Positions 1 through 6,302 of a stretch of 6,302 nt of DNA are shown here, piece after piece. The translations under genes and the position numbers were made by a program. This DNA comes from a virus. Lineage: Duplodnaviria > Heunggongvirae > Uroviricota > Caudoviricetes. The stretch is from the IMG/VR virus record IMGVR_UViG_2619619127_000006. One strand, written 5' to 3'. Position 1 is the stretch's first letter. Every line of letters starts with the position of its first letter. The notes beneath the pieces were generated by a model. It searched no databases. It was not told the origin of the DNA and saw only the letters and a program-made list of their open reading frames with translations.

Positions 1-78
1 ACACGAAAGATCACATACAAAGAGAAAATTTGTTTGTTTTCAATTCATTGCGCATCCATCTAGCCAACAGTCGCTAAA

Positions 79-102
79 TTGGTACACAATTTGGTACACA
101 AA
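79..102. repeat. Tandem direct repeat, 2 x 12 bp (TTGGTACACAAT / TTGGTACACAAA)
   Basis: Exact 11-mer TTGGTACACAA at 79-89 and again at 91-101, head to tail, in a non-coding stretch. Function unknown; could be a protein-binding site. Confidence 0.4.
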
Positions 103-639
103 TGAAAAATCGACACAGCAAGTTTTTCACCCAGTAAAATCATGGTAACACTAAAAAAGTAGTGATTGCACTATCTCTGTTTGACATTGACTAACATTGT
201 CATCGCTTCAATGAAGTACATCGTCTAACCAGGCTGTTTTAGTTGATAATTGTGACTTTATATCGCTGATTGTTGGTACAAACGGAAAAGGAAGGAGACA
301 AAAAATAACACTATTTATTCATCGAATTAATGGTAACCACAAATTAATACAGATGGACACCATCCGAACCTAAAGAAAGATAAGCGGAAGGTTTCCTGAT
401 AGTGACGCCAGCAACTGACAATGATCTAGTTAATTCTCACGACTAGCGACTACTAGCACTGTCGGCATATAAAGCTCACTAGGGTATGAGGTCAGATGAT
501 GGAGAAAAGAGGCTGAGGTGATAGTTGCCGATGATACAATACCGACAAGTAAGTTTATCTGGCACGATGTGTCTCGCACTGTACGGATGATTAAAAATCA
601 AGTAGGGAGCCTTGTGTCTGCTGTTTGAGATGGATTATC

Positions 640-690
640 ATTTTTTATAAGATTACAGGAAAATTATTTTCATATACTGTTTTATTTTTA
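640..690 (+). promoter_or_regulatory. Possible sigma70-type promoter region for the NTPase gene
   Basis: AT-rich stretch with a TATACT hexamer at 673-678 about 30 nt upstream of the ATG. No well-spaced -35 (TTACAG at 653-658 leaves only a 14-nt spacer). Shine-Dalgarno before ATG 711 is weak. Speculative. Confidence 0.2.
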
Positions 691-710
691 ACAGCGAGCC
701 AGAAAACTTG

Positions 711-2453
711 ATGAAATACTCTAACAGCAATCTTATTATAAAAATAATACATCTACTTTCACAAAAAAGAGATGGTCTGATTTTGCTTGATGGGAGCTGG
801 GGCACAGGAAAGACTCACTTTATCAGAAAAAAATTCCCCAAGTACTATGATAAAAACATTTTCTATTATATTTCTTTACTAGGTATTAAATCCTTATCAG
901 ATTTCAAAGCTAAAATTATAGATTGTTACTACCTGCAAGATATACAAACATTTAAATCCGGGCTCGAAAGTCTATCAGGGATAGGTAGCATTGCCAGCGG
1001 CTCACCTGCAAGTGCCAATATTATTAACAGCATGTTTAATTCTATTGGTGCAAGTGTTAGAGAAAACATTTTATCAAAACTGGATGGTATTTTTATATTG
1101 GATGATATAGAGAGAATATCCGAAAAATCATTAGTTAGTGAAATTTTGACATATTGCCATTCTCTTTATATGTCCGAGATGAACTCAAATTTAGACTTTA
1201 TTATTATTACCAATACATCAACTGAGTCTGGTTTAAAAATAGAACACAAGGAAAAACTCATTGCAGAAACACTTCATTATAATCCGCATCCAGAGGAAAT
1301 ATTGGATATAGATATAATAAATGGAAAGCTTTCCCAATTCCCACAGGAAGATAAAATTCTCTTTGAGGATATAGTAAAAAATAACAACATAGTTAACATC
1401 CGTATTTTGATGCGTATTTTGGACACAGTTACGCCATTATATGAATACGTTAAATCATATCCTCATCTTTCTTGGCGAATACCATCAACAATTCTTTTAA
1501 ACTCAATATGCTCTTTCTTCATTTTATTATTTTTGCATAATCACTCTCTTGAGGATCTTCTCAAGGACAAAGATCCAACTTTTTTATTAAACACCGAGAA
1601 ATCAAGTGATAGTGAGAGAGTGCTATGGTTAGCATTGAATAATTACAAAATAAAACCTGAGATTAAAAGGTATTATAGCGGACAAGCTTCATTAAATGAC
1701 ATATTGGATGTTTTGTTTTATGAAGCAAAACGGCTTACTATGAGAGAAATTGCAATATCAGCACGTCCAGAATTACATGAGATAAATGAAAAGGAACTTT
1801 CAAATACACTTGTCGACTTAATTTGCCGTAAGATTGACTGTAATTTCTATGAATGGATAAAAGCGTTTCAGAATTATGAGTATTTAACCACACATAAATA
1901 CCTACCAAAATCACCAATTATAACTCTAAAGTTTGTCACTTCGATTCTGAACGGATTCACTGACAATGAAGTTGCAGAATGCTTTGAGCTATACTCACTT
2001 GATAGAAAAAATAGCTTAAATAGTGGTTTTGAAGATAGCAAATTGCTGTACTCAATTTCATTTTACCGTTATGAAAGCACGATCAAAATGCGTGAACTCA
2101 ACACTATTAAGTTGCAATTAGAATTGAATGGCTGGGCATCATTCAATGCTAACCAATTAACCACTTTAGATCCATTCGGAAATTATAAGCCGCTTGAAGT
2201 ACTTGGTGTATCATTTGTAACAAAATGCGTTTTAAAGAATTGGGCAGTTAATGATATTGAGCAATTTAGTTCTTTCTTGCGTAGCAACTATCAAATCAGC
2301 AACATAAAACAATTCGCCACTAATGAAAAAAACAAACTTATTTATCTTAGTCAAAAACTTGATATTTTTTGCCTTTCCTATAAAGAAAGCTTTAAATTTG
2401 GAGCCATATACGATCTAAACAGAACAGTTAAAATTGCCATTAACAAATTATGA
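711..2453 (+). CDS. KAP-family P-loop NTPase (putative), about 580 aa; candidate accessory/defence protein
   Basis: Long uninterrupted ORF in the track (708..2453). Position 708 is TTG, immediately followed by ATG at 711, which I take as the more likely start. Walker A 'LLDGSWGTGKTHF' near the N-terminus has the GxWGxGKT form typical of KAP NTPases; Walker B 'GIFILDDIER' lies about 90 aa downstream. The remaining ~360 aa have no motif I recognise. The gene is markedly AT-rich and Ile/Asn/Lys/Tyr-rich compared with the tail genes. Confidence 0.7.
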   Translation: MKYSNSNLIIKIIHLLSQKRDGLILLDGSWGTGKTHFIRKKFPKYYDKNIFYYISLLGIKSLSDFKAKIIDCYYLQDIQTFKSGLESLSGIGSIASGSPASANIINSMFNSIGASVRENILSKLDGIFILDDIERISEKSLVSEILTYCHSLYMSEMNSNLDFIIITNTSTESGLKIEHKEKLIAETLHYNPHPEEILDIDIINGKLSQFPQEDKILFEDIVKNNNIVNIRILMRILDTVTPLYEYVKSYPHLSWRIPSTILLNSICSFFILLFLHNHSLEDLLKDKDPTFLLNTEKSSDSERVLWLALNNYKIKPEIKRYYSGQASLNDILDVLFYEAKRLTMREIAISARPELHEINEKELSNTLVDLICRKIDCNFYEWIKAFQNYEYLTTHKYLPKSPIITLKFVTSILNGFTDNEVAECFELYSLDRKNSLNSGFEDSKLLYSISFYRYESTIKMRELNTIKLQLELNGWASFNANQLTTLDPFGNYKPLEVLGVSFVTKCVLKNWAVNDIEQFSSFLRSNYQISNIKQFATNEKNKLIYLSQKLDIFCLSYKESFKFGAIYDLNRTVKIAINKL

Positions 2454-2934
2454 GAACATCCACTTTACCAAAAAATCATTTTTTTGGTGGGGTAATACCT
2501 GGCGATTAACAAATCTGAAACAAAGCTCTAATACAGCGGCGAAAGCATGATTTACTTGTGTATATTTAGTTCAAGACGTGCTTCGCCGTGCATCTCTCAC
2601 TATTTCCCTCCAGAGCAACATTAAAATACTTCATATAATATATGATATAAGTATCATCTAGCCAAAAACCATTTGAATCCACATGCATTCCAGCTTTTAT
2701 TGATACTCTATCTGATATATCATCCCACCAATTCAGCCATTAATGCTATGACAGGAATTCTAGTTATTCATCATTTTGAGCTGATGATGCAATAACGCAA
2801 TTCATTAATATATAATATTTTTTCACTCACCCCTATTACTTCTGTGGCGCTTGCAAAAAATCATTCAGTCTGAAGCAGGTAATTAATCTCGCCACTTACT
2901 ATCAGTTTCGGGAAAGTACACTAAACATGCTTTT

Positions 2935-3234
2935 TCACCCACGATTAACTAACCGCCAGACCAGCAGACACGCCACCACCGGCACAGCAAAATCCATCAT
3001 GCTTGCCACATCCCACGCGCGTGGATCAAAACCGCCCCACCACGGCATATTCATACGCTTGCCATGCCCGAACATTTCAATCCAGCGATATTCTGCCTGG
3101 GTGTGTTCACGCGCAATGAAGAACGTACAACCGGCTATCGCTCCGTAAGCCCAGTTCCCGGTAAAAAGACCAATCAGTAGCTGCGCAGCCACAGCACAAA
3201 GAGCATGAAGGAAAGGTGTTATATCCATTTTCAT
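2935..3234 (-). CDS. Small hydrophobic (probable inner-membrane) protein of unknown function, about 97-102 aa
   Basis: Track ORF 2935..3243 begins at a TTG. In-frame ATGs at 3232-3234 and 3226-3228 follow an AGGA Shine-Dalgarno-like sequence, so the true start is probably one of these. The protein has two to three hydrophobic stretches (FLHALCAVAAQLLIGLF, AYGAIAGCTFFIA, FAVPVVACLLVW) and a Trp/Gly-rich loop (MPWWGGFDPRAW). Stop TGA at 2935-2937. No family recognised. Confidence 0.55.
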   Translation of the reverse strand: MKMDITPFLHALCAVAAQLLIGLFTGNWAYGAIAGCTFFIAREHTQAEYRWIEMFGHGKRMNMPWWGGFDPRAWDVASMMDFAVPVVACLLVWRLVNRG

Positions 3235-4320: not shown

Positions 4321-4602
4321 TCACATCCAGCCACGAAGTTGATGCTCAACAGCAACCACGTATTCATCGAATAATGACGATATTTGCGAATCATTAATGA
4401 TGCGCACGTTTACAAAATATCCGTCTTCCTTAACACATACCGGTTCGCCATCTTCAGTCAGTTCTCCGGTTTCTTTGTACACGTTACCTATCACGTCAAT
4501 AAGAATATCATCCTGCATCGACTCGTCATCATAATAGCCAGTGCTATCCATAAAGGCCGAAAAGTCGGCCCTGTCGGCAAATTTGAGTGTTAAATCTTTC
4601 AT
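4321..4602 (-). CDS. Small acidic protein, 93 aa, translationally coupled to the tail fibre gene; possible fibre adaptor or assembly factor
   Basis: ATG at 4600-4602 overlaps the fibre gene's TAA stop (4602-4604) by one base. Its own TGA stop (4321-4323) overlaps the Shine-Dalgarno of the next gene. Asp/Glu-rich; no similarity to lambda Tfa that I can recognise. Function is inferred from position only. Confidence 0.55.
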   Translation of the reverse strand: MKDLTLKFADRADFSAFMDSTGYYDDESMQDDILIDVIGNVYKETGELTEDGEPVCVKEDGYFVNVRIINDSQISSLFDEYVVAVEHQLRGWM

Positions 4603-6302
4603 TAGATTGACTCCCCCACCTGAGCATCAGTCAATGCCTTGTGCCATATTCTGAAATTCCTGACATGACCAAATAAATGACGTAACCCGGCTGTAGTCTG
4701 GCCTCCAATACGGATAATTGCGGTGTTCTGAATACAGGACCATGTGGTTTTTGTTTCGCTGGATATATGCCCGTTACTTACTGAGCACGTAGACTGCTCT
4801 GACTTTACACGCATCCCCATAACCATTTTTTCAAGCGATGCGTTTTCGTTTACCCGTCTGTTAGCTCCTCCAATATCGCAATAAGGAAATCCGTCGTAAT
4901 CTGTTGAACGACCGAAGCCAAGAATAATAGCCGCTCCGGTTTGATGACCGCCGGTATCAAAAACACGTGGCGCTGCATTTGGCGTTTTATACCAGTTCTT
5001 ATGTACCTCACAAAGAACCGTAAAAGGAAGATTATAAAGATTATTCTTAATTGGAACTGTAACTATATCGCTTGCGCGGGTCGCCGCCGTCGCTCCTGAT
5101 ATAATAAAAGATGATACACAAGGCCCATCTTCTACTTGTGGGGTGGCCAGATAAATATAGTCACCAGATACGGTTGCCCCGCTCTGCTTAGGAGAATACT
5201 GTATCTGAGAGCCTATTTTTAACTCCCCATCAATTGCCTGAATTGTTGCCTCTGCAAAAATCCATCCGGTAGCTTCGTCCTTTCTGACTCTCGCTGTGAT
5301 CCTTGAGGCAGCACCGCCTGTCATATTAATTTCAAGCGTTTGTGTATCAATATACGCATCACCAAGAAAAGTTGTTGCGCTACCGTCATATTTATCAAAC
5401 CGGATACGCAACCTTACCTGCAGTTCTGTTTTAAAACGACATGAGGTTGTCACGTGTTTATTATCGCCTGAGACATCAACTGACTTTGTTGCAGCAATTG
5501 ATGCCATATTAATGGCTGAGGTTTGCCCAATCAGAGAATCGTTACAGACAAACTTTCCATAGGTAAAACCAAAACTATCCGTCCCGGTTTCGGGAACATC
5601 CATATTTGACGATCGCCCCCAACTGGCAGGGCTTTCCGAATTGAGCATGTAGTTTGTTCTTTGCCCCTCAATAAGCAGGCCATCACGTTCAAATCGTGGC
5701 TCGTCAATGGCAGCCTCTGTCAGCACACCAGATTTGTTAATATAGGTTGCTTTCGATGCACGTTTAAACTTAACAATCTTGTCGCCAGGCATCGTTATTT
5801 CATCGTCACCAATAACAATTTTTTTATATGATGGCGAAAAGCCCGTAATCATATCCAGCGAATCGTTAAATGGTATCCACACATCAGGCAGCGGCTGTAA
5901 GACATATTTATACGGCTCCGCAGCCTGGCTTGCGTACTCTCTGGCTGCATCTTCGCTTGCTTTAGCTGCCGTCTGGCTTGCTGCCGATGCTTTCGCTGAG
6001 TTCGCAGCCGCTGTTTCGCTCACCTTTGCGTTGGTTTCACTGGTTTTTGCTGCTTTTTGACTGTTAGCTGATGCAGTAGCAGAAGCAGCCGCCGCGCTTG
6101 CAGAACTGGCTGCGGCACTCTCGCTTTGGGCCGCTGCATCCTGACTGCTTTTCGCCGCAGTTTCACTGGCTTTGGCATTCGTTTCGCTGGTCTTCGCTGC
6201 CGTCTGGCTGGACTTTGCGTTAGTTTCACTCGTCTTCGCAGCTTTCTGGCTGTTAGCCGCAGCAGTTGCTGATCCAGCTGCTGAAGTCGCAGAACCGGCT
6301 GC
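4602..6302 (-). CDS. Side tail fibre protein (Stf-like), 5'-partial; N-terminus lies beyond the window edge
   Basis: The track's 473-aa ORF starts at a GTG (6021-6023). Translating the same minus frame by hand from 6302 downward gives an uninterrupted 'AAGSATSAGSATAAANSQKAAKTSETNAKSSQTAAKTSETNAKASETAAKSSQDAAAQSESAAA...NSQKAAKTSETNAK' run with no stop, continuous with 'SETAAANSAKASAASQTAAKASEDAAREYASQAAEPYKY...'. These 'AAKTSETNAK' repeats are characteristic of lambda Stf and the related enterobacterial prophage side tail fibres. The C-terminal ~440 aa are Gly/Thr/Ser-rich, consistent with a fibre shaft. Confidence 0.85.
   Translation of the reverse strand, partial: AAGSATSAAGSATAAANSQKAAKTSETNAKSSQTAAKTSETNAKASETAAKSSQDAAAQSESAAASSASAAAASATASANSQKAAKTSETNAKVSETAAANSAKASAASQTAAKASEDAAREYASQAAEPYKYVLQPLPDVWIPFNDSLDMITGFSPSYKKIVIGDDEITMPGDKIVKFKRASKATYINKSGVLTEAAIDEPRFERDGLLIEGQRTNYMLNSESPASWGRSSNMDVPETGTDSFGFTYGKFVCNDSLIGQTSAINMASIAATKSVDVSGDNKHVTTSCRFKTELQVRLRIRFDKYDGSATTFLGDAYIDTQTLEINMTGGAASRITARVRKDEATGWIFAEATIQAIDGELKIGSQIQYSPKQSGATVSGDYIYLATPQVEDGPCVSSFIISGATAATRASDIVTVPIKNNLYNLPFTVLCEVHKNWYKTPNAAPRVFDTGGHQTGAAIILGFGRSTDYDGFPYCDIGGANRRVNENASLEKMVMGMRVKSEQSTCSVSNGHISSETKTTWSCIQNTAIIRIGGQTTAGLRHLFGHVRNFRIWHKALTDAQVGESI
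5940..6302 (-). repeat. Imperfect tandem coding repeats inside the tail fibre gene
   Basis: Nucleotide blocks recur with variation, e.g. 'tttcactggtttttgctgctttttgactgttagc' near 6036-6068 against 'tttcactcgtcttcgcagctttctggctgttagc' near 6222-6254, and 'gctgccgtctggct' at 5966-5979 and 6197-6210. They correspond to the AAKTSETNAK / AAKSSQ peptide repeats. Confidence 0.6.

Follow-up and report, generated by a model that had tools for sequence, protein, structure and literature searches.

The subject of this study is a KAP-type P-loop NTPase gene in a 6,302-nucleotide stretch of viral DNA (hereafter "the window"; IMG/VR record IMGVR_UViG_2619619127_000006), which is 100% identical to positions 1894324-1900625 of the chromosome of Escherichia coli CNR65D6. 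Family membership, genomic position and evolutionary pattern lead us to lean slightly toward a function of this KAP gene in defense against phages or mobile genetic elements. The gene is clearly accessory and mobile among prophages, and is not a housekeeping gene. It is a divergent, transmembrane-less relative of the catalogued defense candidate PDC-S49 and of KAP defenses that have been validated in principle, rather than a new category.

Features of the KAP protein

An uninterrupted open reading frame (ORF) occupies positions 708..2453 of the + strand, and the program call was a protein of 581 amino acids (aa) that initiates at TTG. An ATG follows directly at 711. The RefSeq entry WP_000877736.1 ("P-loop NTPase fold protein") begins at this ATG, and the homologs in an alignment of 31 all begin M-[KE]-Y-S-N(-S-N), which matches the same codon. 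The product is therefore 580 aa long, not 581. A preliminary description of this DNA, made from the letters alone, had placed the ORF at 708-2453; the reading frame is real, and only its start moves from the TTG to the ATG.

The protein matches the Pfam family KAP_NTPase (PF07693) with 29.0 bits against a gathering cut-off of 20 (E 8.4e-7), a match limited to aa 8-170 and to profile positions 6-192 of 293. The forms that Walker A and Walker B take in the KAP family, GxWGxGK[ST] and hhhhDD[LI][DE]R, are both satisfied (GSWGTGKT and FILDDIER). In the 31-homolog alignment, where identity falls as low as 18%, G28, W30, G31, G33, K34, T35, D131, D132, E134 and R135 are invariant, as are E181, K182, N229, R231 and W382, and N168 is nearly so. 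By its sequence, then, this is an intact P-loop NTPase in which no AAA+-like catalytic residue is missing. The preliminary description had called the gene a KAP-type NTPase on the strength of "GSWGTGKT" and "IFILDDIE", and both the family assignment, at the level of the Pfam domain, and the two motifs are borne out. So is the sharp contrast in composition that it drew with the tail genes: GC content is 31.6% in the KAP gene (29% at third codon positions), 35-37% in its flanks and 46.5% in the tail genes.

No homolog was found when the Protein Data Bank was searched with the protein sequence, and the sole match (E 0.046) was rejected as spurious. In the model, the fold of the N-terminal domain is AAA+/ORC-Cdc6/TnsC-like. 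The AAA+ match predicts that N168, which closes strand 161-168, occupies the sensor 1 position, and the ORC/Cdc6-type match likewise puts R231, at the start of lid helix 230-249, at a probable sensor 2 position. Sequence identity to ORC, Cdc6, TnsC, MuB, BrxC and STAND NTPases is only 8-18%, and the Walker A of the E. coli protein has the KAP-specific tryptophan. It also differs from Avs/NLR proteins in having no N-terminal effector domain. The C-terminal part, ∼330 aa, is entirely helical in the model and matches no solved fold. Pfam and NCBIfam give no family match beyond the N-terminal KAP_NTPase region, in agreement with the preliminary description, which had left the C-terminal part unassigned. 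No nuclease, TIR, protease or pore-forming fold was found in the protein.

Most, though not all, prokaryotic KAP members have a transmembrane hairpin in the P-loop domain, and this hairpin is absent from the E. coli protein. The insert between Walker A and Walker B (aa 77-111), which stands where canonical KAP proteins have these helices, has a predicted local distance difference test score (pLDDT) below 50 in the AlphaFold2 model, yet it is conserved, with 68-74% column identity among 25 closer homologs, and the top hydropathy windows exclude it. These results agree with the earlier remark that this spacer is Gly/Ser-rich and not clearly membrane-spanning. The sole hydrophobic window of the protein, aa 257-275 (Kyte-Doolittle 2.09), was considered as a transmembrane segment and rejected. 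It follows the lid, is modeled with high confidence as a helix of the helical domain and has lost its hydrophobic character in distant homologs; it is therefore treated as a buried core helix. No signal peptide, secretion motif or conserved transmembrane segment was found in the KAP protein.

Relation to known defense systems

Comparison with defense catalogs, a check that the preliminary description had proposed, returned candidate systems only. In PADLOC the protein matches PDC-S49 (E 7e-16, over aa 25-250 and profile positions 27-258 of 624, which is the NTPase half only, with PADLOC coverage thresholds not applied) and, far more weakly, PDC-S20 (E 0.0015), and no other model. There is no match to the PADLOC models for PifA (none at E ≤ 1), Tmn or any validated system. 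PDC systems, 145 candidates in all (Payne et al. 2024, bioRxiv 10.1101/2024.01.29.577857), were drawn from genes that lie within BREX, DISARM and type I restriction-modification loci. Neither in the window nor in 10 close contexts is the KAP gene embedded in or adjacent to such a locus; it occurs there as prophage cargo or in small islets.

Distant relatives link the E. coli protein to PDC-S49 over more of its length. In an exhaustive profile search, 253 representative clusters fell below E 1e-30 and 8060 below E 1e-3; many match end to end, with lengths of ∼550-615 aa. In a contig profile scan, the matches listed are distant relatives only (21-34% identity), which makes the scan unsuited to a census of the close family; among these matches, proteins from Pseudoalteromonas, Alteromonadaceae and Rheinheimera match the PDC-S49 profile along its entire length. 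PDC-S49-matching intermediates (L019, L022 and L023) align to the KAP family over aa 23-551. Because these intermediates match both families full-length, the E. coli protein probably represents a divergent branch of the PDC-S49 superfamily. The two share a single-gene organization, a length of ∼580-625 aa, an N-terminal GxWGxGKT/DDxER NTPase and a long helical C-terminus, whereas the E. coli C-terminal domain has diverged too far to be detected directly. The 150 neighbors of 17 distant homologs include Olokun, PDC-S06, JukA, CapP, methyltransferases, mad genes and AriA, with none matched in more than three proteins; this tally is qualitative and has no background control.

Validated KAP defenses provide a second point of comparison. 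EF_KAP and three gut-metagenome proteins are single-protein defenses that protect Enterococcus from phages (PLoS Biol 2026, PMC13552941). According to the same study, these proteins, which combine KAP with regions of unknown function, depend for defense on both Walker B and the C-terminal region and are carried by mobile elements, close to small serine recombinases; EF_KAP acts without abortive infection and has transmembrane helices, including one within the NTPase domain. Compared by architecture only, the E. coli protein resembles them, for in these defenses an N-terminal KAP NTPase precedes ∼320 aa without a known domain or structural match. It differs in that it has no transmembrane helices, and the hosts of EF_KAP-type proteins are Firmicutes. 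Pin-type invertases also lie near several loci of the E. coli family, a likeness that is confounded by their identity as the tail-fiber invertases of these prophages.

With PifA, the F-plasmid protein responsible for T7 exclusion, the KAP protein shares the Pfam KAP_NTPase domain, the GxWGxGKT form of Walker A and the status of a single protein on a mobile element. With a model length of 720, PifA is the larger protein, and it is membrane-associated. The PADLOC PifA model grazes only two distant relatives (E ∼1e-4) and not the E. coli protein, and the family link to PifA suggested at the outset is thus reduced to a shared Pfam domain and is weak. Tmn (Gao et al. 2020) is likewise a one-gene P-loop NTPase defense with an insert after Walker A; the Tmn insert forms a transmembrane hairpin, in place of which the E. 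coli protein has a soluble Gly/Ser loop. Tmn reportedly works by hydrolyzing ATP (as cited in PMC13552941).

A variable cargo gene of lambdoid prophages

The window starts 29 bp from the 5' end of thrS. Reading from thrS, the lambdoid prophage carries the KAP gene, a 97-aa gene, a tail fiber gene with an S74 chaperone domain, a 93-aa gene, stf, lom and J, and continues through terminase and then Q, P, O, a cI-like gene, bet/exo and int, after which espL1 follows. A 28-bp exact direct repeat on the thrS side, the putative core of the attachment site attR, has a second copy 25 bp outside the start of int. Since the repeat brackets the element, the KAP gene lies inside the prophage, ∼600 bp from attR, a position that corresponds to the b region of lambda. 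A further copy of window positions 1-107, 87% identical, is found at L002 21329-21434, ∼130 bp past the integrase-side repeat, and may be the scar of an earlier or tandem integration at the thrS-espL1 site. The rusA gene and a helix-turn-helix (HTH) gene of the prophage are frameshifted, so the prophage may be partly defective. Outside the window it also carries iss (a serum-survival lipoprotein), emrE and the ybcK recombinase (L002 1410-1703 and 11695-12027).

The sequenced phages Tritos, HannyBb, PhiR63_1 and 2G7b have tail-fiber modules that are 96-97% identical to that of the prophage, and their homology to the window begins only at 2931. Window positions 1-2930 are therefore a variable cargo segment, whose inner edge is marked by the 97-aa gene, the first of the phage-shared segment. 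In Tritos, the slot of the KAP gene is occupied by PinR and an HTH regulator, so that the gene is indeed variably present in related prophages, as the preliminary description had proposed to check.

Of 5426 complete E. coli genomes, 71 (1.3%) contain the cargo segment, in one copy each and always on the chromosome. At least 99% identity is shared by 65 of the 71 copies, and among the copies listed nearly all are annotated as intact coding sequences. Homologs occur in only two of 72,556 plasmids. In PHROGs, a relative with unassigned function (phrog_4740) matches the N-terminal half of the protein.

We inspected six of the E. coli loci for context, four of which lie at thrS with differing neighbors. 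One is a full lambdoid prophage, and another is a prophage with a P22-like tailspike (strain A3, L003) in which the KAP gene is frameshifted. In PSS-10 (L004) the prophage is reduced to a deleted remnant and the KAP gene is intact; in 20A24 (L111) the prophage is truncated by IS1 and the KAP gene is intact and identical. In KK05-19 (L110), by comparison, the KAP segment sits in a Qin-like prophage context beside tfaQ/pinQ. The KAP gene is thus kept when the surrounding prophage decays, as the IS1-deleted and decayed cases show. The gene is rare, its contexts differ and closely related phages carry other genes at its slot, all of which agrees with the initial view of horizontally acquired prophage cargo; a conserved housekeeping gene in a syntenic stretch of chromosome is not what was found.

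Cassette origin and allele exchange

The close homologs form a compact family of ∼580-aa proteins in Enterobacteriaceae (38 clusters). Four lineages carry a cassette of the order (dinI)-SRAP→KAP→ ←umuC←umuD, which adjoins lambdoid tail genes. Identity of the cassette KAP proteins to that of E. coli is 70% in Citrobacter amalonaticus, 69% in Enterobacter cloacae, 49% in P0026 and 39% in P0027, and P0020, with a KAP protein 58% identical, has umuCD only. Remnants of the same arrangement are present in the window. When SRAP proteins from Citrobacter and from the P0027 locus are used as queries, aa 88-166 align at 279-509 (44%) and aa 166-205 at 506-625 (57%). Window positions 551-2548 are 74% identical to the Citrobacter cassette (L006) by blastn, and nucleotide homology stops at 2548, the outer end of a short umuC remnant. 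From the two remnants and the homology to the cassette, it follows that the E. coli KAP gene is the sole survivor of such a cassette.

The preliminary description had found no adjacent partner and reasoned that the gene, if defensive, would act alone. No intact partner ORF is in fact present, and no partner gene is conserved across 10 contexts of KAP homologs, but the pseudogene remnants of SRAP and umuC that flank the gene had escaped it. Homologs also occur as lone genes, in a Cronobacter islet, a Pseudomonas islet, a colicin/CP4-like island, an AcaB/TraU element that is ICE-like (integrative and conjugative element) or IncC-like, and an islet of C. freundii that also holds a second KAP gene. 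This second KAP_NTPase gene (746 aa; L101 15659-15740) is ∼7 kb from the homolog and beside a gene for an 885-aa CHP02642 protein, and the islet may be a small defense island. The interval between SRAP and umuC (or between SRAP and the tail genes) elsewhere holds csp genes (PHB10, L107), XRE and ImmA genes (Klebsiella phage ST846-OXA48phi9.2, L109) or, in Gifsy-2 (L108), the type III secretion system effector gene sseI. The SRAP-umuC interval thus appears as a general cargo-exchange slot in enterobacterial lambdoid prophages.

Among the cassettes, identity is 85-91% for SRAP, 85-97% for UmuC and 76-96% for UmuD, whereas the KAP proteins encoded between them are 35-94% identical. In the pair L013 and L099, SRAP, UmuC and UmuD are 89.6, 97.2 and 96.4% identical and the KAP proteins only 39.0%; at the DNA level the flanks are 85% identical, and no similarity is detectable across the KAP interval. 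The breakpoints in this pair fall close to the two gene ends, within the final ∼35 nt of SRAP and the final ∼30 nt of umuC. With divergent KAP genes between conserved flanks and breakpoints at gene ends, we conclude that old alleles have been swapped as a module.

The KAP gene is under purifying selection. Ratios of nonsynonymous to synonymous substitution rates (dN/dS, or ω) are 0.118 between E. coli and Citrobacter, 0.136 between E. coli and Enterobacter and 0.144 between Citrobacter and Enterobacter. Evolution is about two times faster in the C-terminal half than in the NTPase half (dN 0.23 versus 0.11; ω 0.15-0.22 versus 0.08-0.09).

Regulation

The spacer upstream of the KAP gene contains a sigma-70-like promoter candidate at 625-653, which a consensus scan alone finds no better than chance. 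The element TATAAGAT at this site is common to the corresponding spacers of the Citrobacter and Enterobacter cassettes, and this conservation, together with the candidate site, suggests that the KAP gene has its own promoter. Promoter and terminator scans gave counts not above the shuffled expectation, and no family reached its gathering score in an Rfam scan of the window.

Control of the KAP gene by LexA was considered and rejected. The window has no perfect CTGT-N8-ACAG box, and boxes with one mismatch number 3 versus 1.8 expected, which is chance level, with none upstream of the KAP gene. A CTG-N12-CAG sequence upstream of the gene has the wrong spacing for a LexA box. In the Enterobacter cassette, perfect LexA boxes precede dinI and umuD, one each, and the KAP gene there therefore lies between two SOS-regulated units. 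The LexA boxes of intact cassettes are located at L099 5732-5747 and 10490-10505 and at L013 13486-13501.

Other features of the window

The features located in the window are collected in Table 1. The 97-aa phrog_1443 protein looks hydrophobic, and its gene sits at the end of the tail-fiber module; it accompanies lambda-like fibers and also the P22-like tailspike prophage of strain A3. At 4602-6302 (- strand), the ORF that was listed with 473 aa from a GTG covers just the C-terminal portion of a 791-aa stf-like tail fiber (WP_138585055.1), which runs off the window end and matches the NCBIfam domain "GTA/phage head spike fiber". Between these genes and the KAP gene, positions 2549-2934 are an AT-rich interval of ∼390 bp in which neither six-frame translation nor tblastx and blastn against all related loci revealed an ORF or homology. 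This interval recurs only in E. coli genomes with the KAP gene, and is treated as non-coding filler.

Table 1. Positions of the KAP gene, its motifs and other features in the window.
Feature	Position	Strand	Basis or remark
28-bp exact direct repeat, putative att core (attR)	76..103	.	blastn, 100% to L002 21173-21200
Frameshifted SRAP remnant (YedK-like peptidase, PF02586), C-terminal ∼118 aa	279..625	+	tblastn, E 5e-17
Sigma-70-like promoter candidate, TTGAGA-17-TAAGAT	625..653	+	In upstream spacer of KAP gene
KAP-type P-loop NTPase gene	711..2453	+	580 aa; ORF list, RefSeq, Pfam, dN/dS
Walker A GSWGTGKT, aa 28-35	792..815	+	Sequence; invariant residues in alignment
Gly/Ser/Ala-rich insert between Walker A and B, aa 77-111	939..1043	+	Predicted disordered yet conserved
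Walker B IFILDDIER, aa 127-135	1089..1115	+	D131, D132, E134, R135 invariant
Strand LDFIIITN ending in N168, sensor-1-like position	1191..1214	+	Alignment; strand 161-168 in model
VNIR motif, aa 228-231, sensor-2-like arginine	1392..1403	+	Alignment; helix 230-249 in model
C-terminal all-alpha domain, aa ∼250-580	1458..2450	+	Putative sensor/interaction module
umuC remnant, last 17 codons	2498..2548	-	tblastn 59% over 17 aa, weak alone; plus blastn
97-aa small protein gene, phrog_1443	2935..3228	-	PHROG match; first gene common to sequenced phages

Candidate functions

On the reading toward which we lean slightly, the KAP gene encodes a soluble, ATP-driven, one-protein (superinfection) defense against phages and is a moron of the cargo slot next to attR. 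As to mechanism, the lysogen would express the gene from the gene's own promoter, and the helical C-terminal domain, which evolves fast, would recognize a component of the infecting phage. Binding would then turn the NTPase module, with its ORC/Cdc6/TnsC-like fold, into an ATP-bound oligomer. ATP hydrolysis (or oligomerization) might itself be the output, since no separate effector fold is present, through remodeling or sequestration of the target or through a drain on ATP. The conserved flexible Gly/Ser loop that replaces the KAP transmembrane hairpin would probably join in the block. We regard these particular steps of sensing, switching and hydrolysis as possible but doubtful. It is quite improbable that these proteins instead form a separate soluble lineage of KAP NTPases, without an effector domain and with alleles kept as interchangeable cassettes between the SOS genes SRAP and umuDC, that senses intermediates of phage DNA replication or damage directly, and then assembles on nucleic acid or inserts its loop in the membrane; if true, this would constitute a defense mechanism without a described counterpart.

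Several observations weigh against a defensive function. The slot also holds morons that are not defense genes (sseI and csp), which weakens the argument from cargo position. No homolog was found in 50,697 sequenced phage genome records. PDC-S49 is itself a "guilt-by-embedding" candidate only, its match to the E. coli protein is confined to the NTPase half, and the tally of defense genes near distant homologs has, as noted, no background control. No mention of WP_000877736 or PDC-S49 was found in the literature, and the protein has no recognizable effector domain. Within E. coli, dN/dS is ∼0.7, a value that derives from only 23 substitutions, and the copy in strain A3 is frameshifted. A gene of 31.6% GC is also a likely target of H-NS and may be silent.

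The last of these observations would also fit a silent, decaying relic of the degraded cassette that is now functionless in E. coli. Both former neighbors of the gene are pseudogenes, the prophage has other pseudogenes (rusA and the HTH gene), and the gene is very AT-rich. Nonetheless, we assign this explanation little probability: a 1.74-kb ORF has stayed intact at a base composition where chance stops are frequent, all catalytic residues are conserved, and dN/dS between genera is 0.12-0.14. The near identity of most copies, nearly all of those listed being annotated as intact, and the persistence of an intact gene where the adjacent prophage is deleted likewise argue against decay. The cassette itself raises the possibility of an accessory function in SOS or DNA-damage tolerance, in which the ATPase would load or regulate SRAP (abasic-site crosslinking) and UmuD'2C (translesion synthesis), for example, on DNA that is damaged or replicating. 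SRAP and KAP recur on the same strand, with spacers of 65-82 bp and facing umuC and umuD, in Citrobacter, Enterobacter and two further lineages. The remnants of SRAP and umuC in the window, the LexA boxes before the flanking dinI and umuD genes in Enterobacter and the resemblance of the predicted fold to DNA-binding AAA+ loaders point the same way. This proposal is nevertheless very unlikely to be correct. In E. coli the KAP gene is intact while SRAP and umuCD are decayed or deleted, and it is without a LexA box; lone homologs exist in Cronobacter, C. freundii, Pseudomonas, the ICE-like element and the colicin island; unrelated genes fill the SRAP-umuC slot in other phages; and the KAP alleles are far more divergent than their flanks, unlike a co-adapted complex.

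It is also conceivable, if unlikely, that the gene is a lysogenic-conversion or selfish moron with a role other than defense, acting on host physiology, plasmids, other mobile elements or prophage maintenance. The company it keeps is compatible with such a role, given the virulence and stress morons found at the slot elsewhere (sseI, csp genes, XRE/ImmA) and the presence of iss and emrE in the same prophage, and KAP NTPases are functionally diverse as a class (Aravind 2004, as cited in PMC13552941). However, the only functional matches at the family level are defense candidates or validated defenses, hypervariability of alleles and module exchange are typical of immune genes, and no signal peptide, secretion motif or conserved transmembrane segment is present in the protein.

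Implications

Two facts are added here to what has been catalogued for this superfamily: the origin of the E. coli gene in a decayed SRAP-KAP-umuCD cassette, and the exchange of divergent alleles as modules between conserved flanks. If inactive or silent, the gene would be an ordinary prophage moron, already annotated in RefSeq as a P-loop NTPase. If active, it would provide a KAP-type single-gene defense in the tractable host E. coli K-12, for which BASEL and lambdoid phage panels are at hand. The natural series of alleles in one cassette, 35-94% identical, would then allow specificity to be mapped to the C-terminal domain. A soluble member of the family, without transmembrane helices or an effector domain, would help show by what means KAP NTPases, PifA among them, stop phages.

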